Source: an uncultured Thermoleophilia bacterium (lineage in GTDB: Bacteria > Actinomycetota > Thermoleophilia > UBA2241). Taken from it: a stretch of DNA of 64,000 bases. Below, one piece after another: positions 5,125-46,040 of the stretch (positions are counted from its first letter, which is position 1; every line of letters begins with the position of its first letter). Below the pieces are notes generated by a model. That model was given only the letters and a program-made list of their open reading frames with translations, was not told the origin of the DNA and searched no databases. The stretch covers positions 65,014 to 129,013 of the forward strand of contig CAWHUW010000005.1 in assembly GCA_963832655.1 (NCBI GenBank), given 5' to 3'. The position numbers and the translations under genes were made by a program.

Positions 5125-5193
5125 ACGACGGGGCTGCGGCCGGCAGGCGGTCCGCTGCGGTGGGCTTGCAGTGCCGTGGGATACCATTGGTCG

Positions 5194-6513
<1,320 letters not shown>

Positions 6514-6598
6514 CTGGACGCGATAGGCTCCGGGCAGAGCGAGACCCGCCGGGGTCGCGCAGCCACCCGACGTGGGACGACCTGAGAGGGGGCCTCCA

Positions 6599-8087: not shown

Positions 8088-8150
8088 GGCGGCGCCCGAT
8101 GGCGGAGAACATGGGCGCGCTGACGCCCGGCACGACTGGGTAAGGCGCTG

Positions 8151-10950: not shown

Positions 10951-11631
10951 GCGACAGAGCAGTCCGGGCCATCCAAGGTCGAGCGCCGGGCAACGACTCC
11001 GGTGGCCGGCGCGATCGCCGGCATCCTCTTCGCCGTGCTGTTCGGCGATCAGCGTCGTCATCATTTCGACCGACGATGACCGACGTCGCCGACGAGTACG
11101 GGTGCCTGGCTGGAGGCGGGACGCCGACAGGTTCAAGTTCGCCCTCAGCCTGCTACCCTTCGCGGGGCTGTTCTTCCTCTGGTTCATCGCCGTGACTCGC
11201 GAGCGCCTGGGCCGGTTCGAGGACCAGTTCTTCGCGACCGTCTTCCTCGGCAGCGGTCTGCTGTTCCTCGCCCTGATGTTCGCCGCCGCCGCCTCGGCGG
11301 GAGCCATCGTCGCCACCTACGCCAGGGACCCGTCCGGCTTCGCCGACAGCACGCACCTACCTCTTACGCGCGGCAGACGGTCGCCCAGATCTTCGGCGTC
11401 TACGCGCTGCGCATGGCGGCCGTCTTCCTCATCTCGCAGGCCACGCTCTGGCTGCGCACCGGGGTGATGCCGCGGTGGATGGCTTTCCTCACCTTTCCCG
11501 TGGCGCTCGTCCTGCTCTTCATCGTGACCGAGGTCACCGTTGGATCATGCTCGTCTTCCCGGCGTGGGTGCTTCCTCGTCAGCGTGTACATCCTCGTCGT
11601 GAATCTCCGCAGGCGAGGAGAGGCGGCATGA
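10937..11631 (+). pseudogene. hypothetical multi-pass membrane protein; several frame breaks
   Basis: ATG 10937 follows GAAGGGGGA. Hydrophobic segments (AGAIAGILFAVLFG, FALSLLPFAGLFFLWFIAVTRERLGRFEDQFFATVFLGSGLLFLALMF, AAVFLISQATLWLRTGVMPRWMAFLTFPVALVLLF) are spread over three frames. Confidence 0.4.
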
Positions 11632-29949: not shown

Positions 29950-30462
29950 TCAGGCCTCCTGCTTCTTGGTCTCCTCGAGAGCGTCCTTGAGTTCCTTGGC
30001 GGTCTGCTTGTCGGCCTCTTTGACCGCCTTCTTCTCGGCCTTGGCCAGCTGCTTCTCGACCGCCTCCACCCAGATCTCCTCGAAGACGGCGACGACGCCC
30101 GACGTTCCGGGCGGGATCACGTCTTCGAGGTCCTTCTCGAGGCCCTTCTCCTGGTGGTGGTCGCGGAGCTTGCCGACGACACCGCCGATCAAGCCGCCGA
30201 CGACCATGGCGCCGAGAAGCGGCGGGGCGAACAGGCCGAGGACGAGGCCGCCGGTGACACCGACCGTGGCGCCCTTGAAGACGTCGTGGTCGCCGGTGTC
30301 CTTGACGTGCATGGTGCCGTCGGCGTCGCGAGCCACCAGGATGGCGCCGTCGATCATGATAAGGCCCTCGCGCTGAGCCTTCTTGAGGGCGTCGTAGTCG
30401 ATCTTCGCCGCGGTGGGGTCGCTGTACCCGGCGATGTAGAGGTCGAGCGGTGCGTCCGTCAT
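29950..30462 (-). CDS. DUF1269-like membrane protein (Gly-zipper TM segment, Lys/Glu-rich tail)
   Basis: ATG 30462 follows GGAGGAAT (MTDAPLDLYIAGYSDPTAAKIDYDALKKAQREG...). Only the last 171 codons of the 1120-aa ORF 29950-33312 look coding. Confidence 0.7.
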   Translation of the reverse strand: MTDAPLDLYIAGYSDPTAAKIDYDALKKAQREGLIMIDGAILVARDADGTMHVKDTGDHDVFKGATVGVTGGLVLGLFAPPLLGAMVVGGLIGGVVGKLRDHHQEKGLEKDLEDVIPPGTSGVVAVFEEIWVEAVEKQLAKAEKKAVKEADKQTAKELKDALEETKKQEA

Positions 30463-30669
30463 GATTCCTCCCGGAGATGATACGAGCGTGCGGTGAGCTT
30501 CCCGCCTGAGGCTTGTATCCGGATTCCTCGCACGGGAAACGACTCGCGCACGGCGGTCCTTCCGCGGTCTCTTCCCTGGACCGCCACGCTGGTGTACCTT
30601 GTGGGATAGTCCGGCATACGACCGGCTGAAACCACACAAGTCGACCGACGACGAAGGGGAGTCGCGCGT

Positions 30670-31500
30670 ATGCACACGATCATCGACCGCCAGGAGCTCA
30701 CCAAGGGAGATATGATCTCGATCACCGTCGAGGCGCCGGCCATCGCCCGCAAGATCCACCCCGGGCAGTTCATCGTCCTGCGCGTCAACGAGACCGGCGA
30801 GCGCACGCCCCTCACCGTCGCCTACAAGGACGAGGTCCACGGCACCATCACCATCATCTTCCAGGTGCTCGGCAAGACCACGGCCATGCTCTCCTCCCTC
30901 AAGATCGGCGACGCCATCAAGGACCTGGTCGGCCCGCTGGGCTGCGACGAGCGCTTCAAGAAGGTCGGCACGGTCGTCGGCATCGGCGGGGGTTCGGGCA
31001 TCGCCGTGCTGCATCACATCCTGCAGGGCTCCAAGGAGGCCGGGAACTCGCTGATCGGCATCGTCGGCGCGCGTGAGAAGGCGCTTTTGATCCTCGAGAA
31101 CGAGATGGACGACCTCTGCGAACGGCTGCTGATCACCACCGACGACGGCAGCTACGGCATTCACGGACTGGTCACCGACGCCCTCGCCCAGCTGGTCGAG
31201 GAACAGGTGCATATCGACGAGGTGATCGCCGTCGGTCCCCTGATCATGATGCGTGCCGTCTGCGAGATGACCCGGTTGTACCAGATCCCCACCCTCGTGA
31301 GCCTCAACCCGATCATGGTCGACGGCACCGGCATGTGCGGCGGCTGTCGGGTGACGGTCGGGGGCGAGACAAGGTTCGCCTGCGTCGATGGCCCGCACTT
31401 CGACGGTCATAAGGTCGACTTCGACGAGCTGATGCGGCGCAACATGATGTACTCGCGCGACGAACGCACGTCGCTGCTGACCTCGATCAAGGCGCGATAG
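30670..31500 (+). CDS. NfnA/SudB-like ferredoxin-NADP+ reductase subunit alpha (PyrK-like FAD/NAD-binding, 2Fe-2S)
   Basis: RVNETGERTPLTVA, GIGGGSGIAVLHHI and the C-terminal CGGCRVTVGGETRFACVDGP. Confidence 0.85.
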   Translation: MHTIIDRQELTKGDMISITVEAPAIARKIHPGQFIVLRVNETGERTPLTVAYKDEVHGTITIIFQVLGKTTAMLSSLKIGDAIKDLVGPLGCDERFKKVGTVVGIGGGSGIAVLHHILQGSKEAGNSLIGIVGAREKALLILENEMDDLCERLLITTDDGSYGIHGLVTDALAQLVEEQVHIDEVIAVGPLIMMRAVCEMTRLYQIPTLVSLNPIMVDGTGMCGGCRVTVGGETRFACVDGPHFDGHKVDFDELMRRNMMYSRDERTSLLTSIKAR

Positions 31501-31509
31501 GGGGCCGGG

Positions 31510-33348
31510 ATGATGCAGTCCAAAGAGCTGCTCGCCAGCATCCTCGATGAGACCGATGTGCCGGCCTTCTGTCCCCAGTGCCATGAGGCGCTCAACCGCT
31601 ACGAGCTCAAGCCGCGCAAGGTGTGGATGCGCCTGCACGTGCGGGCCGCGGGCAAGAACGGCGAGCTGCTGCTCGCCCCGGGCTGGGACGTCGTCGACGG
31701 CCGCGTCGCCGTGCAGTTCGAGCGCCGCACCGACCTCGAGCTCGAAGAGGGCCAGGTGGTCGACGACCTTCTCTGCCCGCACTGCGGCGGCTCGCTGATC
31801 GAAAAGGACGCCCATTGCGAGGAGTGCGCCTCGCCGGTCGCCGTGGTGGTCGCCTCCATGCAATCCAAGCTCGTCGACTTCACCATCTGCAGCAAGGTGG
31901 GCTGCAGCGGGCACGGCATCTCTCCCACCGACGAAGCCCGCATCAAGCCCAAGGTCGGGCGCCAGAAGAAGCCCGAACAGGACGCGCTGCTGCGCACCCG
32001 CAACTTCCAGGAGGTCTCGTACGGGTTCGACCGCGAACTCGCTGTCATGGAAGCCGGCCGCTGCATCCAATGCAAGAAGCCGGCGTGTGTGGCCGGGTGC
32101 CCGGTGGGCGTCGACATCCCCGGGTTCATCGGCCTCATCAAGGAGAGCAGGTTCGTCGAGGCGGCGCGGATGATCAAGGAGAAGAACGCCCTGCCGGCGA
32201 TCTGCGGCCGCGTCTGTCCCCAGGACGACCAATGCGAGAAGATCTGCGTGCTGGGAAAGAAAGAGCAGCCCGTGGCGATCGGCAACCTCGAACGCTTCGC
32301 GGCCGACTTCGAGCGTGAGACCGACGCGGTGACGATCCCCCGCAGGGCCGCCTCGACCGGCAAGCGCGTCGCCGTGGTCGGCGCCGGTCCGGCCGGCCTC
32401 ACCCTGGCCGCCGATATGGTCGCCAAGGGCCACTCGGTGACGGTGTTCGAGTCGCTGCACGAGCCCGGTGGTGTGCTGGTCTACGGCATCCCCGAGTTCC
32501 GTTTGCCCAAGGCCATCGTCAGGGCCGAGATCGACTACCTGCGGCGGCTGGGCGTCAAGATCGAGGTCAACTCGATCGTCGGGCGTCTCTACACGGTCGA
32601 TGAGCTCTTCGAGACCGGCTACGACGCCGTCTTCGTGGGTACCGGCGCCGGTCTGCCGGTCTTCATGAAGCTGCCCGGCGAGAACCTCTGCAACATCCTC
32701 TCGGCCAACGAGTACCTCACGCGGGTCAATCTCATGAAGGCGTACGCGTTCCCCGAGTACGACACGCCGGCGCCACACGGGCGCCAGGTCGCGGTGCTGG
32801 GCGGCGGAAACGTCGCCATGGACTGCGCACGCACCGCAGTGCGCATGGGCAGCCGCGAGGTCTCGATCGTCTACCGCCGTACGCGCGACGAGATGCCGGC
32901 ACGTACCGAGGAGATCGAGCACGCCGAGCAGGAGGGCGTCCGCTTCCGTTACCTGACCAACCCGATCCGCTACATCGGCGACGACCAGAGCTGGGTGCGG
33001 CAGATGGAGTGCATCCAGATGCAGCTCGGCGAACCCGACGACTCGGGCCGACGCAAGCCCATCCCCAAGGCGGGGTCCAACTTCCTCATGGACGTCGACA
33101 TGGTCGTGGTGGCCGTCGGCGCCGGACCAAACCCGGTGCTCTTCTCCGGCGCGCCCAAGCTCGAGCGCAACGACTGGGGCTACATCGACGCGCGGACCGA
33201 GGCTGGCCGCACCAGCATGAAGGGCGTTTGGGCCGGCGGCGACATCGTCACCGGCTCGGCGACGGTGATCCTCGCCATGGGCGCCGCCCGCCAGGCGGCC
33301 GACGACATGCACGAGTACCTCACGAACGGCGGCGGCGCCTGGGCGTAG
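31510..33348 (+). CDS. NfnB/GltD-like NADPH-dependent oxidoreductase beta subunit with about 150-aa Cys-rich N-terminal extension
   Basis: The core from about residue 155 contains RNFQEVSYGF, RCIQCKKPACVAGCPVGVDIP, ICGRVCPQDDQCEKIC, VAVVGAGPAGL, VAVLGGGNVAMDCART and GVWAGGDIV. The extension carries CPQC, CPHC, CEEC and two further Cys. Confidence 0.85.
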   Translation: MMQSKELLASILDETDVPAFCPQCHEALNRYELKPRKVWMRLHVRAAGKNGELLLAPGWDVVDGRVAVQFERRTDLELEEGQVVDDLLCPHCGGSLIEKDAHCEECASPVAVVVASMQSKLVDFTICSKVGCSGHGISPTDEARIKPKVGRQKKPEQDALLRTRNFQEVSYGFDRELAVMEAGRCIQCKKPACVAGCPVGVDIPGFIGLIKESRFVEAARMIKEKNALPAICGRVCPQDDQCEKICVLGKKEQPVAIGNLERFAADFERETDAVTIPRRAASTGKRVAVVGAGPAGLTLAADMVAKGHSVTVFESLHEPGGVLVYGIPEFRLPKAIVRAEIDYLRRLGVKIEVNSIVGRLYTVDELFETGYDAVFVGTGAGLPVFMKLPGENLCNILSANEYLTRVNLMKAYAFPEYDTPAPHGRQVAVLGGGNVAMDCARTAVRMGSREVSIVYRRTRDEMPARTEEIEHAEQEGVRFRYLTNPIRYIGDDQSWVRQMECIQMQLGEPDDSGRRKPIPKAGSNFLMDVDMVVVAVGAGPNPVLFSGAPKLERNDWGYIDARTEAGRTSMKGVWAGGDIVTGSATVILAMGAARQAADDMHEYLTNGGGAWA

Positions 33349-33420
33349 CCCGTCGCGGCGTTCGCTCGCTCAGGCCGACCGGGAACTCGCGGCCCCTCGA
33401 GGGCTGCGGTCCACGCGCGT

Positions 33421-34719
33421 CTATCCCTTGCGGCGATAGACGCGGCGCAGCTCGTCGATGCGGTGCTTCGAGAGGAAGACGCAGTCTCCCTTGGCGGCAT
33501 GGCCGGTCGTCACGTCGTGAGCCATCACTCTGCACGACGGCGCACCGCAAAGCCCGCAGTCGAGCCCGGGGAGAAGGCTCTCGATCTGGTCAGCCTCCTT
33601 CAGGCGTCGCACTCGCTCGCGCAGGTCGCCGACCATGACGGTGGTGCGGGGCTCGGGCACGCGCGAGAGCGAGAAGTCCTCGTTGGCGTACCGCCGCGCG
33701 ACCTCGGCCTCGGTGTGCGGATCCGTGTGGGGAAGCTCCGACGCGAGACTCTGCAGCTTCGCCTGCGACAGATACACGTTGTCCACAGTGAGGTTGCCGT
33801 TGCCACAGCCCGCCCAGCACGCGCTGCACTCGAGGAAGTCGATGTTCTTGAGCCTTCCCTGCTCCACGTCGTCGAAGACCCGGATCACGTTGGGCAGACC
33901 CGTGACGGACAGGTAGCGGTGCTGGCTGGGGAGGTCGGCGAGCGGGCGCGGCGTGGACCAGCTCACCATCGAGGCCGAGCGCACGGGATCCAGCTCCGTG
34001 CGCGCCTCGCCCTGCTTCACCGCGTCGCGCGCGGCGGCCAGCACCGAGTTGTAGATCTGCGGTATGCCGATCGCGCCGTCAAGCGTGCTGCGCCCGCCCT
34101 CGGCGGGCTGTTCGATGGAGACGGTCTTGGCCTGGCAGGTCGCCACGTAGATGGCGGCGATCTGTTCCTCGGGGAGTCCGAGCTCACGCGAGTAGTGCCG
34201 CTTCACCTCGCGCCCCGCGATCTCGCGCGGCGGCTTCATGCGGATGAGCTGCTCGAGCAGCTTCGGGTAGGAGACCTGCAGAAGGCGGACGACCACCGGG
34301 CAGGTGATGGCGATGACCGGACGAGGGCCGGTCCACTTGTCGACGTAGTCGACGATCGCGAGCGTCGTCAGCCTCAGGTCGACGCCGAAGTCCCAGACCG
34401 CGTCGAAGCCGACCGCGAGCAGACCGTGCACGATGTGCTCCGGGTGGACCTCCGGCGGGAACTGCCCGAAGAGCACCGGCGACGGCACGGCCACCTTGAA
34501 CGGGAAGTCGGCGAAGTCGGCGAGCGTGCGTGAGGTCGGCCGGATGGCCCCCGACGCGCACACCGTGAGGCACGCACCGCAGTCGATGCAGAGCTCGTTG
34601 ATCGCCCGCGCCTTGCCCTCGCGCACCCTGATCGCATCCGTCGGGCAGGCCCTCATGCAGGTCATGCAGCCCGTGCAGTCGTCCTCGCAGATGACGAAGC
34701 CGTGGGCGTACTCAACCAA
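33421..34719 (-). CDS. [FeFe]-hydrogenase-like protein, putative sensory type (2x[4Fe-4S] N-terminus, H-domain, C-terminal 4-Cys motif)
   Basis: CTGCMTCMRACP and CIDCGACLTVCA. H-cluster-like motifs AITCPVV (compare TSCCP), ATCQAKTVSIE (compare MPCxxKxxE) and ECSACWAGCGNG (compare ExMxCxxGCxxG). C-terminal CGLCGAPSCRV...DCVF. Confidence 0.8.
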   Translation of the reverse strand: MVEYAHGFVICEDDCTGCMTCMRACPTDAIRVREGKARAINELCIDCGACLTVCASGAIRPTSRTLADFADFPFKVAVPSPVLFGQFPPEVHPEHIVHGLLAVGFDAVWDFGVDLRLTTLAIVDYVDKWTGPRPVIAITCPVVVRLLQVSYPKLLEQLIRMKPPREIAGREVKRHYSRELGLPEEQIAAIYVATCQAKTVSIEQPAEGGRSTLDGAIGIPQIYNSVLAAARDAVKQGEARTELDPVRSASMVSWSTPRPLADLPSQHRYLSVTGLPNVIRVFDDVEQGRLKNIDFLECSACWAGCGNGNLTVDNVYLSQAKLQSLASELPHTDPHTEAEVARRYANEDFSLSRVPEPRTTVMVGDLRERVRRLKEADQIESLLPGLDCGLCGAPSCRVMAHDVTTGHAAKGDCVFLSKHRIDELRRVYRRKG

Positions 34720-35149
34720 GGCCGTCGAGCCTTATCCTCGAGGTGACCGTGGTCCCGACCCCTACCTCGGAGCGGAGGTCGAAGGTGTCGGAGTTCCTCC
34801 TGATGTTCGGCAGTCCCATGCCGAAGCCGAACCCCATCTCGCGCATCTCGTCGGTGGCGGTCGACCAGCCCTCCTCCAGGGCCTGGTCGAGATCGGCGAT
34901 CCCCGGGCCGAGGTCGGCGATCTCGATGCCGATGTCCTCGTCGGTGAGCACGAAGGTCAGCGTTCCCTCGTTGGCGTACATCACGACGTTCATCTCGGCC
35001 TCGAAGCAGACGACGACGACGCGGCGGATGATCTGCGAGTCGATGCCCAGCTCCTTCAGCATCGCCTTGATCTCGGTGGAGATCTCGCCGGCCTTGTCGA
35101 AGTCGTGGCTGTGCAGGGTGAACGAGCGCGAGAGCAGCTCCTCCGTCAC
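34712..35149 (-). CDS. HATPase_c-type anti-sigma-factor-like Ser/Thr kinase (RsbW/SpoIIAB-like)
   Basis: 145 aa; EAEMNVVMYA, IADLGPGIADLD and GFGMGLPNIRR (N, G1 and G2 box-like). Overlaps the hydrogenase-like gene start by 8 nt. Confidence 0.75.
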   Translation of the reverse strand: MTEELLSRSFTLHSHDFDKAGEISTEIKAMLKELGIDSQIIRRVVVVCFEAEMNVVMYANEGTLTFVLTDEDIGIEIADLGPGIADLDQALEEGWSTATDEMREMGFGFGMGLPNIRRNSDTFDLRSEVGVGTTVTSRIRLDGLG

Positions 35150-35515
35150 CTACATCACTCCCTCCAGGCCCGCTTCGTAGAGGATGCCGCAGCTGTCGAA
35201 CATGCCCAGTGCCGTCGCCAGGACGGGGATGCCGTTCTGGACGGCGAGGTCGAGGACCTTCTGCTCGGGGCGCTTGTCGCGCACGTACACCAGGGCGGCC
35301 ACGTCGGCCACGACCGCGGTCCGCACCGACTGGATGTTTGTCAGCCCCGTGAGCATCAGGGCGTGAGGGCGATGAAAGGCGAGGATCTCGCTCATGCCGT
35401 CGGAGGCCACGACGGTGTCGACCTCGATGGCGCGGTCGACCGTCATGAGCGTCTCGCAGCTCAGGAGCTCGGCGATCTCGCTGAGCCTCATCGCCGTGCG
35501 CCCTCGCGCCGTCAC
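35150..35515 (-). CDS. DRTGG domain protein
   Basis: MRLSEIAELLSCE..., ALMLTGLTN and RDKRPEQKVLDLAVQNGIPVLAT. GTGA overlap with the upstream gene; an alternative ATG lies at 35491. Confidence 0.7.
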   Translation of the reverse strand: MTARGRTAMRLSEIAELLSCETLMTVDRAIEVDTVVASDGMSEILAFHRPHALMLTGLTNIQSVRTAVVADVAALVYVRDKRPEQKVLDLAVQNGIPVLATALGMFDSCGILYEAGLEGVM

Positions 35516-35841
35516 CGCAGGCCGAGATCGGCGAGCTTGAGGGCGAACTTCCAGGTGTCGTCGGCCGTCGTGAACAGCGCCAGGCCCACCCGGTCGGCCA
35601 GCTGGATCACGTCGTCGTCCGGCTTCTTGCCATGCGCGAACACGACCATCCCCGCGTCGACCAGGTTCGCGGCGGCGATGAAGTTCTTGTGCGTCTGCAG
35701 CGTCACGAGCATGCTGCCTGCCGTGGCGCCGGTGATGACGTCCGACGCCATGTCGGAAACGTAGACGCCCCCCACCTCCGCGTCGTCGTGGGTGTTGAGC
35801 GGCTCGAGTCCCGTCTTCTCAACGATCTCGGACATCTTCAC
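35512..35841 (-). CDS. DRTGG domain protein
   Basis: MKMSEIVEKTGLEPL..., SMLVTLQTH and HGKKPDDDVIQLADRVGLALFTT. Confidence 0.7.
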   Translation of the reverse strand: MKMSEIVEKTGLEPLNTHDDAEVGGVYVSDMASDVITGATAGSMLVTLQTHKNFIAAANLVDAGMVVFAHGKKPDDDVIQLADRVGLALFTTADDTWKFALKLADLGLR

Positions 35842-35887
35842 TTGGCGTCCCCTTCCCTTTCGCGCGCGGCTTGGCCGGCGGGTGGTC

Positions 35888-36410
35888 CTAGAGTTCGATG
35901 AGGCCGCTGTCGGCGATCACGATGCCCGGACAGCAGTCGACATCGCCGCACATCTTGCAGGGCAGCACGAGGATCTTCTTGGGCCCTTCGCGGAGACGCT
36001 GATTGAAGTACTCGTTCAGCGCCGCGATACCCTCGTCGCTGACGCAGTCGGGGTTCGTCTCGTGGGTCGAGTCGGAGCACAGGGCGACGTAGATCGACGT
36101 GTTCCGGCCCATCTCATGGGCCATGCGGCCGATCTCGCAATCGGGGTTCTCGCAAGTACAGAGCATGAGACCTTCGACGTCGCCGAGGTCGACCGTCTCG
36201 CCGCAGATGTCGCAGCGCATGTTGAACGAGACGGCCTGGGAGCTGACCATGTACTGCCAGTGGTGAGGCCCTTCCTGGTACTCCTCGACCGGAGGGGCGA
36301 CCTCGGTCGAGAAGTACGTTCCCCTGGCTCCACAGTGGTGGCACCCCTCGACGACCAGGTACCCGCTGCGGATATCGATCAGGGACCAACGGTGAGCGCA
36401 CGAGCTCATC
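35888..36410 (-). CDS. cysteine-rich hypothetical protein (14 Cys in 173 aa), first gene of the sensory module
   Basis: ATG 36410 follows CTGGAGGACCG. Motifs CHHCG, CDICG, CTCENPDC and CKMCGDVDCC. No family recognised. GC is visibly lower than in flanking genes. Confidence 0.65.
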
Positions 36411-36435
36411 GGTCCTCCAGTCTCTGAGGCGAAGC

Positions 36436-38679
36436 TCAGATCGTGCCGGTCAGGCCGGATTCCCGCTCGAATGCTACCACAGGCGGGCGCAAGCTCCAGG
36501 GGGTATCCCCGGCAACGCGGACCCGGGGCGGCGGGGCGCTCGCGAGCGCCCCGCCGCCGCGTCCCCTCAGGTCTTGCGGCGCTTCGGCTTCGCCTTGTCG
36601 GGCTTGAAGGACGCCCAGCTCCGTGCGCCGGCGCGGCTTGCGCGACACGTCGACGCGGCCGCGACCGAAGGCGTCCACGTGGCCCCAGCGGCCGGGGATG
36701 TCGAGCAGCTCGAGACGGCCGATGCCCTGGGGCAGGACCGGGTCGACGATGAGATGCTCGCCGCTCGGCTCGAGCCCGAGCATGGTCCTCAGAAGAAGCA
36801 GAGGGGTGCCGGTCGACCAGGCCTGCGGGCTGCACGCCGTCGGGTATTGCACGGGGTACTTCGTGAGCTCGCGCGCGTAGCCGCCGAACGCCTCCGGCAG
36901 GCGGCCGTCGAAGCACTGCGCCGCGTCGAGGATGCCGGCGGCGATGCGCGCCGCCTCCTCCTTGAAGCCGTACCTCCGCAGGCCCCAGGCGATGAACGAG
37001 CAGTCGAACGGCCAGACCGTGCCGACGTGGTAGCCGATCGGGTTGTAGCGCCCCTGGCCCTCGGCGAGCGTCCGCACGCCCCACCCGCTGTACATGGCCG
37101 GCGACATGAGGTGCCGGGACACCGCCTTCGCCTTGGACTTGTCGACGATACCGCTCCACAGCAGGTGGCCGATGTTCGAGGCCAGGGCGTCGACCTGGCT
37201 CCCGTCGACGTCCAGGGCGAGCGCGTAGTACTGGCCGTCGTCGACCCAGAAGTCGCGGTTGAAGCGCCGTTTGAGCGCCGCGGCCTCCTTCTCGAGCCGG
37301 TCGGCGTAGGCCGGGTCGCGCCAGACCTCGCGCGCCAGCCGCGCTCCGCGCACCTTGGCGTCGTAGGCGTACCCCTGCAGCTCGCAGGTCGCGCGCGGAA
37401 AGCCCGGCAGGCGCCCGTCGCGGTACGAGATCGAATCCCACGAGTCTTTCCAGCACTGGTTCTCGAGCCCGGAGGTCTCGTTGCGGCGCTGGTAGGCGAC
37501 GTACCCGTTGCCCTGCAGGTCGGCGTACTCGTCGATCCAGGCGAGCGCCGCCCGCGCCACCCCTTCGAGGTTACGCACCAGCTTCGTGTCGCCGGTCCAG
37601 CGCTCGTACTCGTCGAGCAGCACGACGTAGAGCGGCGTGGCGTCGACCGACCCGTAGTAGGGCGAGTGCGGTCGTTCCTCGAACGCGGTCATCTCGCCGA
37701 AGCGCAGCTCGTGCAGGATCCTGCCCGGGTCCTCGTCGCGAAAGTCGTCGCGGCGCGAGCCCTGCCACAGACCGAGAGCGACGAGCGTCGTGCGCGCGAG
37801 GTCAGGCGCGAAGGGCAGCGCCTGCAGACTGGTGAAGACGCTGTCACGACCGAACATGGTCATGAACCACGGCAGCCCCGCGGCCGGCAGATAGTGGCCC
37901 GGCAGCGAGACCGGCGAGAAGCGCAGGGCCGCGAGGTCGACGAGGCTGCGCTGGTACGTCCGCTTGAGCGCGTCCCAGTCGCAGTCGAGCTGGGGCGCCT
38001 CCTCAAGCCAGGTCTCGAGGCTGAGTTCCATGTTCGGCCGCGCCCGCTTCGCCTGGCGGCCGTACTTCGGTCGCTCGACGCTCGTGCCCCGGACGCCCCG
38101 CCCGATGGCCACGTCGAGGTCGGTCGTCCACCTCCCGTGCGGTTCGAGGTGGACGGCGAACGCGAGGCCGTGCTCGTCGACCGAGCAGGCCGCCGACGCC
38201 GAGATCCAGGTCTCGCGCGCGTAGGTCTCGCGGCGGTAGCCCAGGACCAGCTTGCCGTCCTCGACGCGCGCGGAGTACTCGCCCTTCTTCTCGAGCGCGT
38301 CCTTGACCTCGAACAGGTCGGCGAAGTCGCAGGCCGCCTCGAGGCGCACCTCCAGGTCCACGGCCTTGTCGTCGTGGTTCATCACCGTCAGTTCCTCGTG
38401 GAAGCCGCCGCCCACGGCGCGCTCGCGGATCACCGAGAGCTTGGCGTCGATGTACACGGTGCCGGTCCCCGGGACGAGGAAGAACCGGGTCTCGAAGTAC
38501 TGCAGGTCGTCCACCGACAACGGGTTGAGGCGCTGGCCGTTCACGGTCAGCACCCATTTGGAGAGGAACCGCGTGTCGAACGAGAAGAGGCCGGTCGGGT
38601 CGGTCGGCGACGCCTCGATGTCGCCGCGGTCGTCGCTGACGACGAAGGTGTTGCCGTCGAGGATCTTGACCTCGCTCAT
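36436..38679 (-). CDS. amylo-alpha-1,6-glucosidase / glycogen debranching enzyme family protein
   Basis: 747-aa ORF; ATG overlaps the SCP2 stop (ATGA) and follows GAGGAGG. N-terminal GDE domain MSEVKILDGNTFVVSDDRGD; GLPWFMTMFGRDS; (alpha/alpha)6 barrel part. The last ~45 codons (36436-36566) look non-coding, so the true stop is probably 36567. Confidence 0.85.
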   Translation of the reverse strand: MSEVKILDGNTFVVSDDRGDIEASPTDPTGLFSFDTRFLSKWVLTVNGQRLNPLSVDDLQYFETRFFLVPGTGTVYIDAKLSVIRERAVGGGFHEELTVMNHDDKAVDLEVRLEAACDFADLFEVKDALEKKGEYSARVEDGKLVLGYRRETYARETWISASAACSVDEHGLAFAVHLEPHGRWTTDLDVAIGRGVRGTSVERPKYGRQAKRARPNMELSLETWLEEAPQLDCDWDALKRTYQRSLVDLAALRFSPVSLPGHYLPAAGLPWFMTMFGRDSVFTSLQALPFAPDLARTTLVALGLWQGSRRDDFRDEDPGRILHELRFGEMTAFEERPHSPYYGSVDATPLYVVLLDEYERWTGDTKLVRNLEGVARAALAWIDEYADLQGNGYVAYQRRNETSGLENQCWKDSWDSISYRDGRLPGFPRATCELQGYAYDAKVRGARLAREVWRDPAYADRLEKEAAALKRRFNRDFWVDDGQYYALALDVDGSQVDALASNIGHLLWSGIVDKSKAKAVSRHLMSPAMYSGWGVRTLAEGQGRYNPIGYHVGTVWPFDCSFIAWGLRRYGFKEEAARIAAGILDAAQCFDGRLPEAFGGYARELTKYPVQYPTACSPQAWSTGTPLLLLRTMLGLEPSGEHLIVDPVLPQGIGRLELLDIPGRWGHVDAFGRGRVDVSRKPRRRTELGVLQARQGEAEAPQDLRGRGGGALASAPPPRVRVAGDTPWSLRPPVVAFERESGLTGTI
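36527..36558 (-). terminator. perfect 32-nt GC palindrome (possible terminator/attenuator) between the debranching-enzyme gene and the sensory module
   Basis: GGCGGCGGGGCGCTCG/CGAGCGCCCCGCCGCC gives 16-nt perfect arms. It lies just downstream of an alternative in-frame stop (TGA, complement of 36567-36569) that a 1-nt correction near 36610 would expose. Confidence 0.4.
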
Positions 38680-41065: not shown

Positions 41066-42781
41066 TCAGACCGTCGCGAAGATCTCGTGCGACAGCATGC
41101 CGCCGGCGACGGTCCGCGCAGTGAAACCGTTCTGCAGCAGGATCCGCGTCGCGTAGTAGGCCCGCTGGCCCGACCGGCAGATTACGAGGATCTCACGATC
41201 GCGGGGCAGCTCATGCAGGCGCCCGCGGAGCTCATCCACCGGGATGTTGACCACCCCCGGCAGTTGCTCGAGCGCAAGCTCCTCAGGATGGCGCACGTCG
41301 AGGAGGAAGCCGTCTTTCGTGGCGTCCCAATGGATGAGCGGCATGTCGCCCCGCAGGACGTCGGCGCCCACCATCCCGGCGAAGTTGGCGGGCGACTTCG
41401 CCATGCCGAACTGGGGCGCGTAGCAGAGCTCGCACTCCTCCAGATCGTAGACGGTGCCACCCATCTGGATGGCCATGGCCAAGGCGTCGATCCGCTTGTC
41501 CACGCCCTCCCTCCCCACGGCCTGCGCCCCGAGGAGCCGCCCGTCGGATCTGCGGAAGATGACCTTGATGGCGAGCAAAGTAGCGCCGGGGTAGTACCCT
41601 GCGTGGGAGTTCGGGTAGAGGTAGATCTTCTCGAAGTCGTCGTCGCCCAGGCGCCTGAGGGTCTTCTCGTTCACGCCGGTCCAGGCGACTGCGCCCCCGA
41701 AGGCTCCGAGGATCGCCGTGCCCTGGGTGCCGCGGAACCGCGAGTCCCGCCCGGAGATCACGTCGGCCACGATGCGACCTTGCCGGTTCGCCGGCCCGGC
41801 CAGCGCGACGAGACAGTCTTCGCCGGTCATGCAGTCCGTCTTCTCGACAGCGTCGCCGACGGCGAAGATGTCCGGGTCGCTCGTGCGCATCTGGTCGTCG
41901 ACGCGGATGCCGCCGAGCTTGCCGACCTCGATGCCGGCCATCTCGGCGAGCGCGGTCTCGGGCTTCACGCCGATACCGAGGATCACGATGTCCGCCGGAT
42001 ACGCCTCGCCGGATGCGGTGAGGACCTCGAGGGATCCGTCCGCCGCCTTCCGGAACCCGGACGCCGCACTGTTCAGCAGGATCCGCACGCCGTTCTTGCT
42101 GAGATGGCGCTCCACGTAGCGCGCCATCTCGATGTCGAGCGGCCCCATGATCTGCTCGCCGCGTTGCAGCAGCGTGACCTCGAAGCCGAGCCCGACCAGG
42201 TTCTCGGCCGTCTCGATGCCGATGAAGCCCCCGCCGACGACGACCGCGCGCAAGCCCCTGGTGCGTGTCTGGAACCCGGTGTAGGAGTCCATGCCTCCCG
42301 ACCTGCCGCGACGCTCGTCGATCCAGGCACGGATCTGGGCGGCGTCCGGTACCGTCCTCACCCCGAAGATCCCGGGAAGGTCGATCCCCGGCAGCGGCGG
42401 GCGGATGGGAGCCGCCCCGGGTGAGAGGACGAGCCTGTCGTAGTGCTCGGTGGTCACCTCACCCGTCAAGCGGTCCGTGAGCTGCACAGTCTTCTCGCGC
42501 GCCGCGATCCCGACCACCTCGCAGTCAGTGCGGGCATCGACGGCGAACATGTCGCGAAAGGTATCCGTGGTCGCGACCAGCAGAGTCGACTGCTGCTCGA
42601 TCACGCCGCCGATGAAGTACGGGAGGCCGCAGTTCGCGTACGAGACGTACGGACCGCGTTCGACCATGAGGATCTCGGCGTTCTCGTCGAGGCGGCGCAG
42701 GCGCGCGGCGCACGAGGCGCCGCCGGCCACGCCGCCCACGATGATCACCTTCGTGCCTGCGGGTTTGTCTGTGGGTCCCAT
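41066..42781 (-). CDS. CoA-disulfide reductase / NADH-dependent persulfide reductase fused to a C-terminal rhodanese domain
   Basis: VIIVGGVAGGASCAARLRR, redox Cys in SYANCGLPYFIGG, second Rossmann VVVGGGFIGIE. Rhodanese active-site loop VICRSGQRA near the C-terminus. Confidence 0.9.
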   Translation of the reverse strand: MGPTDKPAGTKVIIVGGVAGGASCAARLRRLDENAEILMVERGPYVSYANCGLPYFIGGVIEQQSTLLVATTDTFRDMFAVDARTDCEVVGIAAREKTVQLTDRLTGEVTTEHYDRLVLSPGAAPIRPPLPGIDLPGIFGVRTVPDAAQIRAWIDERRGRSGGMDSYTGFQTRTRGLRAVVVGGGFIGIETAENLVGLGFEVTLLQRGEQIMGPLDIEMARYVERHLSKNGVRILLNSAASGFRKAADGSLEVLTASGEAYPADIVILGIGVKPETALAEMAGIEVGKLGGIRVDDQMRTSDPDIFAVGDAVEKTDCMTGEDCLVALAGPANRQGRIVADVISGRDSRFRGTQGTAILGAFGGAVAWTGVNEKTLRRLGDDDFEKIYLYPNSHAGYYPGATLLAIKVIFRRSDGRLLGAQAVGREGVDKRIDALAMAIQMGGTVYDLEECELCYAPQFGMAKSPANFAGMVGADVLRGDMPLIHWDATKDGFLLDVRHPEELALEQLPGVVNIPVDELRGRLHELPRDREILVICRSGQRAYYATRILLQNGFTARTVAGGMLSHEIFATV

Positions 42782-42809
42782 CGTCACGTCCTTTCTCGAT
42801 GACCTGCTG

Positions 42810-43211
42810 CTACGCAACGTCACGCCCCTCGTCCATCGGAGCTCCAGTCACGAGCTCGACCGCGGGCAGCAGATCGGTCACGATCGCCCGCTTGAGGACG
42901 AAGGCGTCGGCGCCGGCTTCGATCGCTGCCCGGCGCACGCTCTGCTCGTCGTGCACGCTGAGGACGATCACCTTGAGCTCGGGGCAGCGCTGCCGGACCG
43001 CTCGCAACCAGTCCAGACCGCTGTTCTGAGCCAGAGACAGATCCACGACCGCCACGTCAGGCTGCAGCCGGCTCGCGCTCTCGAGCAGCGACGCCTCGTC
43101 GGCGACCATGACGACCGCTCCGAACGCCGTCTCGAGCAAGCCGCGCACGCCTTCTGTGAGGCCCTGATGGCGGTCCGCCAGCAGCACGCAACTGAGATGC
43201 TTCTCGGGCAT
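42810..43211 (-). CDS. stand-alone response-regulator receiver domain protein (no output domain)
   Basis: MPEKHLSCVLLADRHQG..., phospho-acceptor context DVAVVDLSL, VIVLSVH and AFVLKRA. The acidic pair is degenerate (DR instead of DD). Confidence 0.8.
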   Translation of the reverse strand: MPEKHLSCVLLADRHQGLTEGVRGLLETAFGAVVMVADEASLLESASRLQPDVAVVDLSLAQNSGLDWLRAVRQRCPELKVIVLSVHDEQSVRRAAIEAGADAFVLKRAIVTDLLPAVELVTGAPMDEGRDVA

Positions 43212-43271
43212 GGGGCAGTCTCTCTCCGCTACCGTGCTCGCCACCATGCCGGTCGGCATACGGCGTCGAGT

Positions 43272-43343
43272 GGAGACTAGTGCGGATCCGGAGCGCTGTG
43301 ACCTCGGGAAACTACCGGGCCTGTCGCTGGGAAACTACGAGGG
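43272..43343 (-). promoter_or_regulatory. conserved promoter-like element, copy A (drives receiver / CoADR-rhodanese unit)
   Basis: The minus strand reads CCCTCGTAGTTTCCCAGCGACAGGCCCGGTAGTTTCCCGAGGTCACAGCGCTCCGGATCCGCACTAGTCTCC. TAGTCT lies about 62 nt upstream of ATG 43211. Confidence 0.6.
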
Positions 43344-43383
43344 TGCCGGACGCTGCTGGGGCCAATGCCCACGTACGGACCGA

Positions 43384-45393
43384 ATGGTAGACTCCGGCAA
43401 CGTGGCCACGATCGATGAGACGTCGCGCTCTGCCGAGCCCCTGGGGAGCCGTCTCGAGTTCGAGACGCTGATCTCCGACCTCTCCGCGAGGTTCATCAAC
43501 CTGCCGGGCGGCGAGGTGGACGGCGCGATCAAGGACGCGCTGCGCAGCGTCTGCGAGTTCCTCGCCATCGACTATGCCGTGCTCTGGCAATGGTCGGCCG
43601 CGGCGCAGGACGCCATCACGCCCACTCACGCCTTCCCCGCCGAGGAAGGCTCGCGACCTCCCGGGCCGCTTCGTCAGGAGCAGTACCCCTGGACGGTACG
43701 GCAGATGCAGGCCGGCCACATGGTCGTGCTTGCCGCGCTGGAGGACCTGCCGGCTGAGGCCGCCGTCGACCTGGAGCACGCCCGCCTCGGCGGTATCAAG
43801 TCGACGTTGTGCCTGCCGCTGCGGGTGGGAGGCGAGTCGACCGTTGGCGCCCTGGCCCTCAATGCCCTGCGGACGGAGCGCGACTGGCCGGACGCGCTGG
43901 TGAGGCGACTGCAACTGGTCGCGCAGGTCTTCGCCAATGCATTGGCTCGAAAGCGGGCAGACGATGCCTTGCGCGAGAGCGAGGAGCGCCTGGCCCTGGC
44001 GGCGGACTCCGCCGAGGCGGGGCTCTGGACCCTGGAGTACGGCACGGGCGTCTTCTGGGCCACTGAGAGGGCTCGGGCGATCTTCGGGTATACGCCGGAC
44101 GAGGTCGTCACGATGGAGCGTTTCCAGGCTTCGGTGCATCCCGACGACTGGGAGCTCGTTCGGGGAGCCATCGAGCGGTCCGCGCGTGCGGGCGAACCCG
44201 TCAACGTGGACTACCGGATCCTGACGGAAGGGGGCGGCGAGCGTTGGATCGTGTCTCGCGGGCGACCCCACTTCACGTCGCTTTGGGAGCCGGATCGCCT
44301 GACGGGCCTCTCCATCGACATGACCGGGCGCAAACGCGGCGAAGAGGCGCTTCACATCAGCGAGGCTCGCCTGGCGGCGGGCGCTGACCTCGCAGGCCTC
44401 GCGTTCTACGAGGTGGACTTCGGCGAACGCGTCGCCATCGTCGACGACCGGTTTCGCGACATCTGCGGCATTCCCCAGGAACAGGAGAAGGGCCTTCAGC
44501 CAGTGGAGTTCTGGATTGAGCACTTGCACCCTGACGATCGCCGACGCGTGTTGCACCAGCGCGAGGAGCTGCACGAAGGGAGGCTGGAGCGGCTCTCCAT
44601 CGAGTATCGATACCTGCATCCGGCCCATGGGGAGAAGTGGCTTGATCACGAGTCCCGCGTCACCGCGCGCGACGCCACCGGACGCGTGGTCAAGACATTC
44701 GGCGTCCTCCGCGACATCACCGAGCGAAAGCGAGTCGAGGAAGAGCTGCGCGACCTGAGCCGGCGCCTGATCGGAGCCCACGAGGAAGAGCGCGCGCTGC
44801 TCGCGCGCGAGTTGCACGACGACGTGAGCCAGCGGCTCGCCGTGCTGGCGATCGACGTCGGCCGCGCCGAGCTGGCCGCCCCGGACAGGGCGCAGGCAGA
44901 GGCCATGACGGCGGTCCGTGAGGGACTCACGCGCCTCAGCGAAGACGTCCACTCCCTGGCGTACCAGCTGCACCCGTCGGTCCTGGAGGAGCTGGGCCTG
45001 GACGAGGCGCTTCGGGCGGAATGCGAACGGCGGGGTCGTCAGGGCGCGCTCGACATCTCGGTCGACCTCGGCCCGCTGCCCGCCGTCGTAGGCAAGGGCG
45101 AAGCGCTGTGCCTGTTTCGGGTGGCCCAGGAGGCGCTCAACAACGTGGCCCGCCACGCGGGTGCGCGCGCCGCGAGCGTCACGCTACGGGAGATGGACGA
45201 CGGGTTGCTCCTCGCCGTCCGTGACGACGGCGTCGGCTTCGATCCTGAGAATCCGCGAAAGGGGATGCGCCTCGGCCTCGTGGGTATGCGCGAGCGCGTG
45301 CGACTGGTGCGCGGCACGCTCGACGTCGAGAGCGCGCCCGGCCGGGGCACGACGATCGTCGCCTGGGTACCCGCGGAAGCGGAGTCGCGATGA
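43384..45393 (+). CDS. cytosolic sensor histidine kinase, GAF-PAS-PAS-HisKA_3-HATPase_c
   Basis: No TM segment. GAF (LAIDYAVLWQW...LCLPLRVGGESTVGALAL) and two PAS/PAC repeats (...VHPDDWELV...; ...LHPDDRRRV...). H-box EEERALLARELHDDVSQ. NNVARHA, DDGVGFD and GLVGMRERV. Confidence 0.9.
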   Translation: MVDSGNVATIDETSRSAEPLGSRLEFETLISDLSARFINLPGGEVDGAIKDALRSVCEFLAIDYAVLWQWSAAAQDAITPTHAFPAEEGSRPPGPLRQEQYPWTVRQMQAGHMVVLAALEDLPAEAAVDLEHARLGGIKSTLCLPLRVGGESTVGALALNALRTERDWPDALVRRLQLVAQVFANALARKRADDALRESEERLALAADSAEAGLWTLEYGTGVFWATERARAIFGYTPDEVVTMERFQASVHPDDWELVRGAIERSARAGEPVNVDYRILTEGGGERWIVSRGRPHFTSLWEPDRLTGLSIDMTGRKRGEEALHISEARLAAGADLAGLAFYEVDFGERVAIVDDRFRDICGIPQEQEKGLQPVEFWIEHLHPDDRRRVLHQREELHEGRLERLSIEYRYLHPAHGEKWLDHESRVTARDATGRVVKTFGVLRDITERKRVEEELRDLSRRLIGAHEEERALLARELHDDVSQRLAVLAIDVGRAELAAPDRAQAEAMTAVREGLTRLSEDVHSLAYQLHPSVLEELGLDEALRAECERRGRQGALDISVDLGPLPAVVGKGEALCLFRVAQEALNNVARHAGARAASVTLREMDDGLLLAVRDDGVGFDPENPRKGMRLGLVGMRERVRLVRGTLDVESAPGRGTTIVAWVPAEAESR

Positions 45394-46040
45394 GCTCTCC
45401 GCGTCGTCCGCGCGTGCTCCTCGCCGACGACCATCTGCTGGTCGCCGAGGCGCTCAAGAGCCTGCTCACCCCCGAGTTCGATCTGGTGGGCGTGGTGGAA
45501 GACGGGCTCGCTTTGGTCGAGGCGGCCGGGAGGCTGCGCCCGGACGTGATCGTCGCCGACGTCACCATGCCCCACCTCAACGGCATCGACGCCCTGGCGC
45601 GGTTGAGGCAGGGCGGCGATCGAGTTCCCGTGGTGTTCCTCACCATGCACCGGGACGTGACCTTCGCGCGGCGCGCGCTCGAAGCCGGGGCCTCGGGCTT
45701 CGTGCTCAAGCACTCGGCGTCGGTCGAGTTGATCGCCGCCCTCCACGCCGCACTCGAAGGCAAGACCTACCTCACGCCGCAGCTCGCGGGGGAGGTCCTG
45801 GAGGCCATGAAGCAGGGGCCGGGGCAGGCGGCCGATCCAGTCGCATCCCTCACGCCGCGGCAACGAGAAGTCTTGCAGCTTCTGGCGGAGGGGCGCTCGG
45901 CCAAGCAGATCGCCTCGAGCCTCTCGATCTCGACCCGGACGGTGGAGTTCCACAAGTACCAGATGATGGAGACGCTGGGCCTTCACACCAACGCCGACCT
46001 GATCCACTTCGCGATCAAGAACGGCCTCGTCGAGTTCTGA
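45390..46040 (+). CDS. NarL/LuxR-family response regulator
   Basis: ATGA overlap with the kinase. VLLADDHLLV, VIVADVTMPHLNG. HTH LTPRQREVLQLLAEGRSAKQIASSLSISTRTVEFHK. Confidence 0.9.
   Translation: MSSPRRPRVLLADDHLLVAEALKSLLTPEFDLVGVVEDGLALVEAAGRLRPDVIVADVTMPHLNGIDALARLRQGGDRVPVVFLTMHRDVTFARRALEAGASGFVLKHSASVELIAALHAALEGKTYLTPQLAGEVLEAMKQGPGQAADPVASLTPRQREVLQLLAEGRSAKQIASSLSISTRTVEFHKYQMMETLGLHTNADLIHFAIKNGLVEF

Follow-up and report, generated by a model that had tools for sequence, protein, structure and literature searches.

A five-gene module encoding a group D-like [FeFe]-hydrogenase homologue and a SpoIIAB/RsbW-fold kinase is co-inherited with NfnAB genes across phyla

The group D (M2e) [FeFe]-hydrogenases have been proposed to be sensory, and TamHydS from Thermoanaerobacter mathranii is the only member to have been characterised (PMC8163306). 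TamHydS takes up [2Fe]adt and reacts with H2 (PMC8163306); its turnover is slow and its Km for H2 relatively low (PMC8163306, PMC10407848). It has Ala at the position of C299, and the change of M353 to Ser or Thr is 'well conserved in M2e' (PMC8163306). A proton pathway specific to group D runs through E252-E289-S249-D265 in TamHydS numbering (PMC10407848), and the residues R30, R32, K35, D378, E392, D393 and D403 around the clusters are conserved over 70 group D sequences (PMC13104023). The proteins of this group, the sensory hypothesis and the neighbouring HATPase gene are thus already published; the role of the group has so far been argued from one Firmicute enzyme and its gene neighbours. 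Here we describe a related locus in a 64,000-nt stretch of DNA (the window) from an uncultured Thermoleophilia bacterium (contig CAWHUW010000005.1, positions 65,014 to 129,013). Five genes of the minus strand encode a divergent homologue of these proteins (HydLike), a small kinase-like protein (HATPase), two DRTGG proteins and a Cys-rich protein (CysRich), and they face the genes for NfnAB. NfnAB is a NADH-dependent reduced-ferredoxin:NADP+ oxidoreductase. The existence of such a cluster is in itself unsurprising; what the locus does is turn the group D question into a testable link, from sensor to kinase to NfnAB.

The genes of the module and its nfn neighbours are as follows.

33421..34719, minus strand: HydLike, 432 aa, a [FeFe]-hydrogenase homologue of M2e (group-D-like) architecture, from Pfam domains and motifs.
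34712..35149, minus strand: HATPase, 145 aa, a putative GHKL Ser/Thr kinase/ATPase of SpoIIAB/RsbW fold, from Pfam and the predicted structure.
35150..35515, minus strand: DRTGG2, 113-121 aa, a single-domain DRTGG protein (PF07085, 29.7 bits; cutoff 25.2).
35512..35841, minus strand: DRTGG1, 109 aa, a single-domain DRTGG protein (PF07085, 27.6 bits; same cutoff).
35888..36409, minus strand: CysRich, 173 aa, a Cys/His-rich protein, from the reading frame and the conservation of the family.
30670..31500, plus strand: nfnA, NfnS-type small subunit with PF10418 (DHODB-type Fe-S domain), convergent with the module.
31510..33348, plus strand: nfnB, NfnL-type large subunit with an N-terminal extension of ~150 aa, from its match to T. 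maritima NfnB.

The five packed open reading frames (ORFs) span 33421-36409, carry the high-GC3 coding signature of the window and have the same GC content as their surroundings. Read from CysRich to HydLike, the intergenic spacings are 46, -4 (or +20 with the ATG start of DRTGG2), 0 and -8 nt, and a Shine-Dalgarno-like sequence lies ahead of every likely start. HydLike begins at TTG, which is supported by 432-aa homologues beginning MVEY or MAEY. For DRTGG2 the ATG at 35491 is the likelier start; the resulting 113 aa agree with the gene call in L081 (protein P0005), an annotated relative that stands in for gene calls in the window (L numbers denote our loci and P numbers our proteins). Since the spacing is so tight, and since a promoter-like element and leader (see below) are conserved upstream of the first gene only, the five genes probably form one operon. 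An earlier reading of the letters alone (the preliminary description) had named five packed minus-strand genes with these domains and motifs, and ORFs, Pfam and translation bear out all of its descriptive points.

The recurrence of this gene set in 80 related genome loci puts the arrangement far beyond chance. These belong to Thermoleophilia, other Actinomycetota, Anaerolineae, Phycisphaerae/Planctomycetota, Acidobacteriota, Krumholzibacteriota, Desulfobacterota, Aminicenantes, 'Eubacteriales' metagenome-assembled genomes (MAGs), WOR-3 and Brocadiia. Orthologues of each of the five window proteins occur among them, and the closest genome matches are Thermoleophilia MAGs at 86% identity. Complete genomes with members of the clade include CP070744.1, CP070718.1, OY970261.1 and CP113000.1. 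The nfnAB genes lie beside the module in ~66 of the 80, from at least 8 phyla (NfnA-like genes were counted in about 60). A colinear same-strand operon, CysRich-DRTGG1-BfuC/B/A-NfnA-NfnB-DRTGG2-HATPase-HydLike, is found in 41 loci, with the NuoE/F-like genes placed after HydLike in some; 21 loci are truncated and consistent with this operon. Four Actinomycetes loci have the five module genes contiguous and divergent from NuoE-F-G-NfnA-NfnB. The window shares its own layout (five contiguous genes, nfnAB convergent downstream and no Bfu genes) with three Thermoleophilia loci and L081; in L001, L003 and L069 nfnA is 92-93% identical and occupies the same convergent position. In sister lineages (43-47% identity) the genes belong to the same Bfu-Nfn operon, and the 39%-identical outgroup L084 has a CysRich homologue, DRTGG, HATPase and HydS with convergent NfnB-NfnA, laid out as in the window. 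Linkage to nfnAB is thus the rule and the defining context of the clade. The convergence with nfnAB, which the preliminary description had called unusual, belongs to a linkage that spans many phyla and includes that outgroup.

The Bfu genes, present in 60 of the 80 loci, encode NuoE-like BfuC (2Fe-2S_thioredx), NuoF-like BfuB (Complex1_51K, NADH_4Fe-4S and Fer4) and NuoG/Fdh-like BfuA (Fer2_4, NADH-G, Molybdop_Fe4S4 and Molybdopterin); their best PDB matches are FdsA and NiFe-HydA. The 64-kb window has no Bfu or NuoF-like gene, the sole match being the ferredoxin motif inside HydLike. Residues 155-611 of its NfnB match T. maritima NfnB (PDB 4YLF_B, E 8e-170; 5JCA_L, E 2e-153). The extended NfnB, of 611-612 aa versus about 465 aa elsewhere, occurs only in window-type Thermoleophilia loci, which have no Bfu genes. 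The window is a reduced Thermoleophilia version of the locus, without Bfu genes and with an N-terminally extended NfnB.

In canonical Firmicutes the M2e loci keep a triad of DRTGG, HATPase and HydS, either beside Rnf (L082) or alone (L083), and the triad is thus the invariant core of the system. The enzymes linked to it all interconvert ferredoxin, NAD(P)H or H2. The conserved gene set includes no DNA-binding or sigma gene. No canonical or second H-domain gene was found within 10 kb in any of 86 loci, nor in the 64-kb window. The preliminary description had noted that hydEFG maturases and a target (anti-sigma antagonist or sigma factor) are missing from the window. This agrees with a scan of the window and all locus flanks for the CX3CX2C motif, which gave no HydE/G-like radical-SAM ORF and only unrelated radical-SAM enzymes, and with the absence of a STAS or sigma-factor gene among the ~20 genes annotated at about 17-50 kb (~33 kb) of the window. 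An ECF sigma/anti-sigma pair lies 2 kb upstream in L081 and is not conserved.

Several features of these loci are recorded here as observations. The conserved 10-gene operon of L034 1-11300 (Phycisphaerales chromosome CP070744.1) and 40 other loci has BfuC/B/A without an H-domain together with separate NfnA and NfnB. This BfuCBA-NfnA-NfnB operon appears to encode an unfused relative of Stn/Nfn-Bfu transhydrogenases (PDB 8OH5, 9BOV, 9N5U), and the type was not found among the Bfu types in the searched parts of PMC9304861. L082 7718-12337 (Selenihalanaerobacter, FUWM01000011.1) encodes DRTGG, CBS-HATPase, HydS, DRTGG, a PHP phosphoesterase, HATPase and an uncharacterised 118-aa protein, directly upstream of rnfC-D-G-E-A; if kinase and phosphatase form a pair here, the PHP protein could act as the phosphatase. 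In the Actinomycetes MAGs of L014 and L015, a second HydLike paralogue (9998-11290, 62% identical) stands alone, surrounded by cell-wall and pilin genes and lacking both a DRTGG and a HATPase partner; these MAGs also carry the full module (L016, L074), and the context of the paralogue gave no functional clue. The NfnB extension of the window (31510-31970, plus strand) contains the Cys pairs CPQC, CPHC, CEEC and CSKVGC and has only a weak double-zinc-ribbon Pfam match.

Pfam finds in HydLike two Fer4 motifs, PF02906 (Fe_hyd_lg_C, E 2e-20) and PF04060 (FeS, E 1e-9), and nothing else; there is no PAS match in Pfam, and the protein ends 19 residues past its last Cys. By sequence, the PDB entries it matches best are catalytic subunits of [FeFe]-hydrogenases (E 1e-19 to 1e-11). 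An exhaustive HMMER search of 1.84 billion representatives returned 252 relatives at E<1e-30. The relatives among the matches listed are mostly 410-460 aa long and match over their full length; among the listed full-length representatives only three are >43% identical to HydLike and the rest 25-41%, with canonical M2e representatives at ~30-35%. In a neighbour-joining tree rooted on CpI, built without bootstrap and without group B/C references, the clade is monophyletic and nested among representatives of M2e architecture, with P0193, P0189 and P0190 as its successive sisters.

The motifs AITCP, TCQAK and ECSACWAGCGNG can be read directly from the translation. Residue states were assigned by aligning 20 clade members to CpI, whose sequence had been checked as 100% identical to PDB 1FEH/3C8Y. 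The H-cluster cysteines C140, C195, C301 and C305 align with CpI C300, C355, C499 and C503 and are invariant in all 20. CpI K358 corresponds to K198 (K or R in the clade), and both P231 (P81) and P324 (P164) are kept. The proton-relay C299 is replaced by T139, with T in 9, S in 6, N in 2 and M in 2 of the 20. CpI M353 becomes A193 in the window protein and its four closest relatives, the clade having T in 15 of 20; M497 becomes S299, a position that varies in the clade. The C-terminus carries C388-x2-C391-x4-C396-x16-C413, also invariant. The preliminary description had read four retained H-cluster ligands, a lost proton-relay Cys and a C-terminal 4-Cys motif from the letters, and each of these holds. 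So does its class, sensory-type rather than catalytic, in that the architecture is the M2e/group D one of TamHydS.

The active-site surroundings differ. TamHydS positions were located by mapping its published residue numbers through the ungapped W-x-x-x-G-G-E of P0234, a canonical M2e protein from a Clostridia MAG, and CpI F417-V423. The ungapped stretch at CpI F417-G-A-T-G-G-V423 reads W-S-T-P-R-P-L in HydLike, placing R258-P259-L260 opposite G421-G422-V423. Among 111 full-length canonical M2e representatives the motif is W-x-x-(S/T)-G-G-E, with E in 79 and the two Gly in 82 and 103, whereas the clade has R/Q/K, then P/A/G, then L/Q/F, and never E. The equivalent of TamHydS D265 is D in 72 of the 111; it is T273 in HydLike and Thr in 20 of 20 clade members. 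Of the group-D pathway, then, E289 is kept (E297), while L260 and T273 stand at the positions of E252 and D265. The clade has its own invariant residues R165 (CpI Q325), Q196, C298, W302 and N309, which are rare or absent in other M2e proteins. A mapping of CpI I268/A272 to F111/L115, which would suggest a filled pocket, is not relied on; it falls in an indel region, and FGAD is missing in M2e proteins.

On this alignment the clade is divergent, keeping the four H-cluster cysteines, losing the group-D Glu and Asp and gaining invariant residues of its own. Binding of a [2Fe] subcluster would be favoured by a hydroxyl residue in place of C299 and by retention of the Lys/Arg; Arg-Pro in place of Gly-Gly, beside the adt-facing residue, would disfavour it. 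Because E252 and D265 are lost and GG is changed to R-P, H2 chemistry and even [2Fe] binding are uncertain in the clade. The H2 signal of the preliminary description is consequently an analogy: the clade never lies beside a hydrogenase, and residues of the group-D-specific proton pathway are missing.

HydLike and TamHydS share two [4Fe-4S] motifs, the H-domain, Cx2Cx4Cx16C, the absence of PAS and a similar length. Both keep the four H-cluster cysteines, have lost C299 and have a residue other than Met at M353. The charged residues R30/R32/K35/D378/D393/D403 of the group-D set correspond to R31/R33/K36/D387/D402/D412 of HydLike; the equivalent of E392 is His401. As in group D, a HATPase gene adjoins, and in the canonical loci inspected (L082, L083) a DRTGG gene does too. 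HydLike differs in lacking the exclusive relay (GGE to R-P-L, D265 to T), in its own invariant R165, Q196, C298, W302 and N309, and in having Ala rather than Ser/Thr at the M353 position of the window protein. It is linked to NfnAB or Bfu-Nfn and does not lie upstream of a group A3 hydrogenase, and its module adds the CysRich partner and a second DRTGG protein. It thus seems that HydLike descends from, and works like, group D-type proteins, yet lacks one published defining feature, the proton pathway. Group C proteins (TmHydS, R. albus HydS, HfsB) likewise combine an H-domain that lacks the proton-relay Cys with a C-terminal Cx2Cx4Cx16C cluster, and their signalling partners are of Ser/Thr type rather than histidine kinases; unlike them, the module has neither a PAS domain nor a PP2C phosphatase, and no hydrogenase gene appears to be under its control.

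The kinase candidate matches PF02518 (35.9 bits) and PF13581 (HATPase_c_2, 30.5 bits, above the cutoff of 27.4). Its best NCBIfam match is TIGR01925 (SpoIIAB) at 40.3 bits, below the cutoff of 135 and hence short of equivalog membership. The N-box E50/N54, the G1 box D79xGPG and the G2 box GFGFGMG (G106-G112) are invariant. The AlphaFold2 (AF2) model (predicted local distance difference test, pLDDT, 85) was compared with known folds by Foldseek. The top matches are the SpoIIAB structures 1TIL, 1L0O, 1TH8, 1TID and 1THN (TM 0.72-0.81, E 1e-8 to 5e-7), followed by UsfX, RsbW and then PDK/BCKDK. The term 'RsbW-like' used in the preliminary description is therefore apt, given the PF13581 score and this order of folds. 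The best 120 clusters of HATPase at 90% identity are all >=73% identical to the window protein, and across the 80 loci HATPase is 55-91% identical versus 48-86% for HydLike. This stronger conservation fits a hub with several partners.

Three known kinase contexts invite comparison. With SpoIIAB, RsbW and UsfX the protein shares small size (145 aa), the HATPase_c_2 family, intact ATP boxes and the fold; its conserved gene set, however, has no STAS antagonist, PP2C phosphatase or sigma factor, and its neighbours are DRTGG and Fe-S proteins. The accessory 'hisK'/HATPase gene of Bfu-type operons (HydABC, NiFe-HydABCSL) is also a small HATPase gene inside a NuoE/F-type bifurcating operon (PMC9304861). 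The related loci differ in having BfuCBA with separate NfnA and NfnB, and the window in having NfnAB alone; moreover the module HATPase always accompanies DRTGG and M2e proteins. PDK and BCKDK are GHKL-fold Ser kinases that switch off a metabolic redox enzyme complex by phosphorylation and offer a functional analogy for the output; they are much larger, have an extra N-terminal helical domain and no Fe-S sensor partner, and their homology is limited to the GHKL core.

DRTGG2 lies directly upstream of HATPase in 70+ loci, and DRTGG1 follows CysRich in 50+ loci. The conserved motifs are GVYxSDMxSDxI and TLQTHK in DRTGG1, VASDGMSEILAF and TGLTNxQSxRTA in DRTGG2. The two are paralogues with common SD(M/G)xS(D/E)xI and T-x-x-T-(H/N) motifs; the name-giving DR...TGG residues have diverged in both, and the closest PDB sequence is 2IOJ at E 0.25 only. 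CysRich has no Pfam or NCBIfam match. Its 68 homologues, about 172 aa long, are all 'hypothetical' or unnamed, and they share twelve invariant Cys/His residues: C4 H6 C23 H49 C66 C69 C91 C111 H116 C122 C151 C160. Comparison of its AF2 model (pLDDT 82.8) with PDB folds gave no significant match (best E 0.05, MCM/NusG-like fragments). The homologue in the distant NfnAB-linked locus L084 was matched with an hhalign probability of 99.9. CysRich was also compared with the N-terminal extension of NfnB, and the two are unrelated.

Literature searches on DRTGG with hydrogenase, M2e with NfnAB and Aminicenantes with HydEFG returned nothing relevant. In the searchable literature we found no description of the DRTGG partnership, the CysRich family, the linkage to NfnAB/Bfu-Nfn or the divergent active-site signature of the clade.

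We favour, at about even probability, the reading that the locus encodes a sensor-kinase module that controls the neighbouring NfnAB (Bfu-NfnAB elsewhere) post-translationally. Our grounds are that an M2e sensor-type protein is translationally coupled to an anti-sigma-type kinase, that the conserved set includes no transcription factor, that module and enzyme genes are co-inherited across phyla and that the kinase is analogous in fold to PDK-type kinases that regulate enzyme complexes. HydLike, with two N-terminal [4Fe-4S] clusters, an H-cluster-type site and the C-terminal Cx2Cx4Cx16C cluster, would provide the input. The signal may be H2 or how far the low-potential ferredoxin/NAD(P)H pool is reduced, and we divide our expectation roughly equally between H2 acting through a modified H-cluster and low-potential redox state acting through the Fe-S clusters only. 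The state of HydLike would be passed to the SpoIIAB/RsbW-fold GHKL kinase, whose gene overlaps its own. DRTGG1 and DRTGG2 might be partners of the kinase, as ligand-binding modulators or as phospho-acceptor 'antagonists' in a STAS role, and CysRich a metal-binding accessory or adaptor. The output would be phosphorylation or sequestration of NfnAB, or of the BfuCBA+NfnAB complex in most other lineages, rather than a transcriptional response. The fully specified form, in which HydLike has re-tooled or lost its H2 chemistry and senses ferredoxin/NAD(P)H, the kinase works with DRTGG antagonists and a CysRich adaptor, and NfnAB or Bfu-NfnAB is the target, strikes us as doubtful in its entirety.

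Several points weigh against control of NfnAB by the module. The clade is known from sequences and predicted structures alone. Its members lack the group-D Glu (E252) and Asp (D265) and have R-P in place of GG, and the window and locus flanks contain no hydE/F/G-like gene. As nfnAB in the window is convergent, and so not co-transcribed, the functional link rests on conserved neighbourhood alone. We know of no DRTGG protein with a demonstrated kinase-substrate role. In TamHydS, H2 does not reduce the C-terminal cluster, a result that tells against the simplest relay (PMC13104023), and the 'hisK' HATPase of bifurcating hydrogenases did not co-purify with them and is described in PMC9304861 as 'not part of the holoenzyme'.

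The alternatives divide over what HydLike does and where the signal goes. Were its H-cluster complete and matured by HydEFG encoded elsewhere, HydLike would be a true H2 sensor that switches the RsbW-like kinase, with partner-switching to a sigma factor or regulator elsewhere and a transcriptional output. The conserved H-cluster cysteines, K358 (K/R), P231 and P324 argue for this, as do the mostly hydroxyl residues at C299 (15 being T or S among the 20), the uptake of [2Fe]adt and reaction with H2 by the M2e relative TamHydS, and a kinase fold closest to anti-sigma factors. Cys-to-Ser variants of group A enzymes keep their cofactor. We nevertheless think a true H2 sensor unlikely, given that the conserved set and the annotated part of the window have no hydrogenase, maturase, STAS or sigma gene, that the relay Glu and Asp are absent with R-P for GG beside the adt-facing position, and that the conserved partners are transhydrogenase genes.

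It is still less probable that HydLike is a catalytic hydrogenase subunit that docks on NfnAB or Bfu-NfnAB to form an H2-dependent NADP+/ferredoxin oxidoreductase, with the small proteins as accessory subunits. In most lineages HydLike does share one operon with BfuCBA-NfnAB; its N-terminal 2x[4Fe-4S] domain suits electron transfer, and TamHydS is catalytically competent, though slow. But the DRTGG-HATPase-HydS triad is also seen beside Rnf (L082) or with no redox enzyme at all (L083), translational coupling always joins the HydLike gene to that of the kinase and not to one for an enzyme subunit, neither the proton-relay Cys nor the group-D Glu is present, and in the window and L084 nfnAB lies on the opposite strand. 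Co-inheritance with several Fe-S flavoenzymes, namely HydABC (PMC8163306), Rnf and Bfu-NfnAB, could mark an assembly or maturation system for the flavo-iron-sulfur enzymes Bfu/Nfn, made of a GHKL ATPase chaperone, an Fe-S scaffold-like protein and the metal-binding CysRich. With its 9-10 invariant Cys and 3 invariant His, CysRich would suit such a role. GHKL ATPases include chaperones. This ATPase, however, is of the SpoIIAB/RsbW kinase type and not of the Hsp90/MutL type, NfnAB is made in many organisms that have no such genes, and DRTGG domains usually accompany regulatory CBS domains; we regard an assembly system as quite improbable.

If the module does control NfnAB, it would represent a widespread and so far undescribed post-translational control of electron-bifurcating transhydrogenases. 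The clade also supplies natural active-site variants (GGE to R-P-L, with an invariant Arg and Trp) for asking what an H-domain senses. Should its members prove to lack the [2Fe] subcluster, they would be a prokaryotic parallel to the eukaryotic hydrogenase-like proteins Nar1/NARF.

Two further elements lie ahead of the first gene of the module.

36471..36479, minus strand: extended -10 element TGGTAGCAT (TGn + TAGCAT), a candidate promoter ~60 nt upstream of the CysRich ATG, from conservation.
36410..36465, minus strand: 5' leader with a small hairpin, CTGAG-cttcgc-CTCAG, and the ribosome-binding site GGAGGA, from conservation in relatives.

The sequence CTGTGGTAGCAT(T/G)CG is common to the window, L001, L003, L069 and L081 upstream of CysRich, despite differing upstream genes, and is made up of TGn followed by TAGCAT, which corresponds to a TANNNT-type extended -10. 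A generic sigma-70 scan gave no match for the module promoter; its conservation suggests that 36471-36479 serves as one. The leader sequence ...GACCGGCACGATCTGAGCTTCGCCTCAGAGACTGGAGGACCGATG is largely kept in L001 and L081 and partly in L003 and L069, and all five share the leader end GGAGGA-N4-ATG. A comparison of the leader with Rfam gave no credible family match.

The 32-nt perfect palindrome that the preliminary description placed before the genes is real: at 36524-36561 it has 19-nt arms with one mismatch, and its hairpin belongs to a -50 kcal/mol fold (z = -2.2). The module does not include this palindrome. As an operator it was ruled out, being absent from L001, L003, L069 and L081, where the promoter-like element persists. 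Going by this conservation pattern, it is probably a terminator, lacking a U-tail, of the upstream gene of glycogen-debranching type (GDE-like). We note that the palindrome falls in the last ~40 codons of the longest ORF of that gene (36436-38679, minus strand). The Pfam domains stop near residue 625 of 747, and the real stop may be earlier (a frameshift or over-extended ORF), with the hairpin as terminator. At the other end of the module, the 72-nt gap 33349-33420 between the convergent nfnB and HydLike stops holds a 10-nt perfect palindrome, CCCTCGAGGG, which may be a bidirectional terminator.

Elsewhere in the window, the gene for a DUF1269 membrane protein (29950-30480, minus strand) lies just ahead of nfnA in the opposite orientation; in the ORF list it is merged with a spurious 1120-aa antisense reading frame that covers nfnAB. 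At 5124-8151 (plus strand) a radical-SAM ORF with the motif GARCNLRCDYCF is followed by more same-strand ORFs. Apart from HydLike, no other credible CX3CX2C candidate for a radical-SAM enzyme was found in the window, and this one is not HydE/G-like; we take the motif to resemble that of anaerobic sulfatase-maturating enzymes. A separate signalling cluster, related to redox or sulfur, lies about 5 kb from the module at 41066-46040; it encodes a rhodanese-domain flavoprotein of the CoA-disulfide-reductase type, a receiver protein that stands alone, a histidine kinase with the domains GAF-PAS-PAS-HisKA_3 and a response regulator of the LuxR type.

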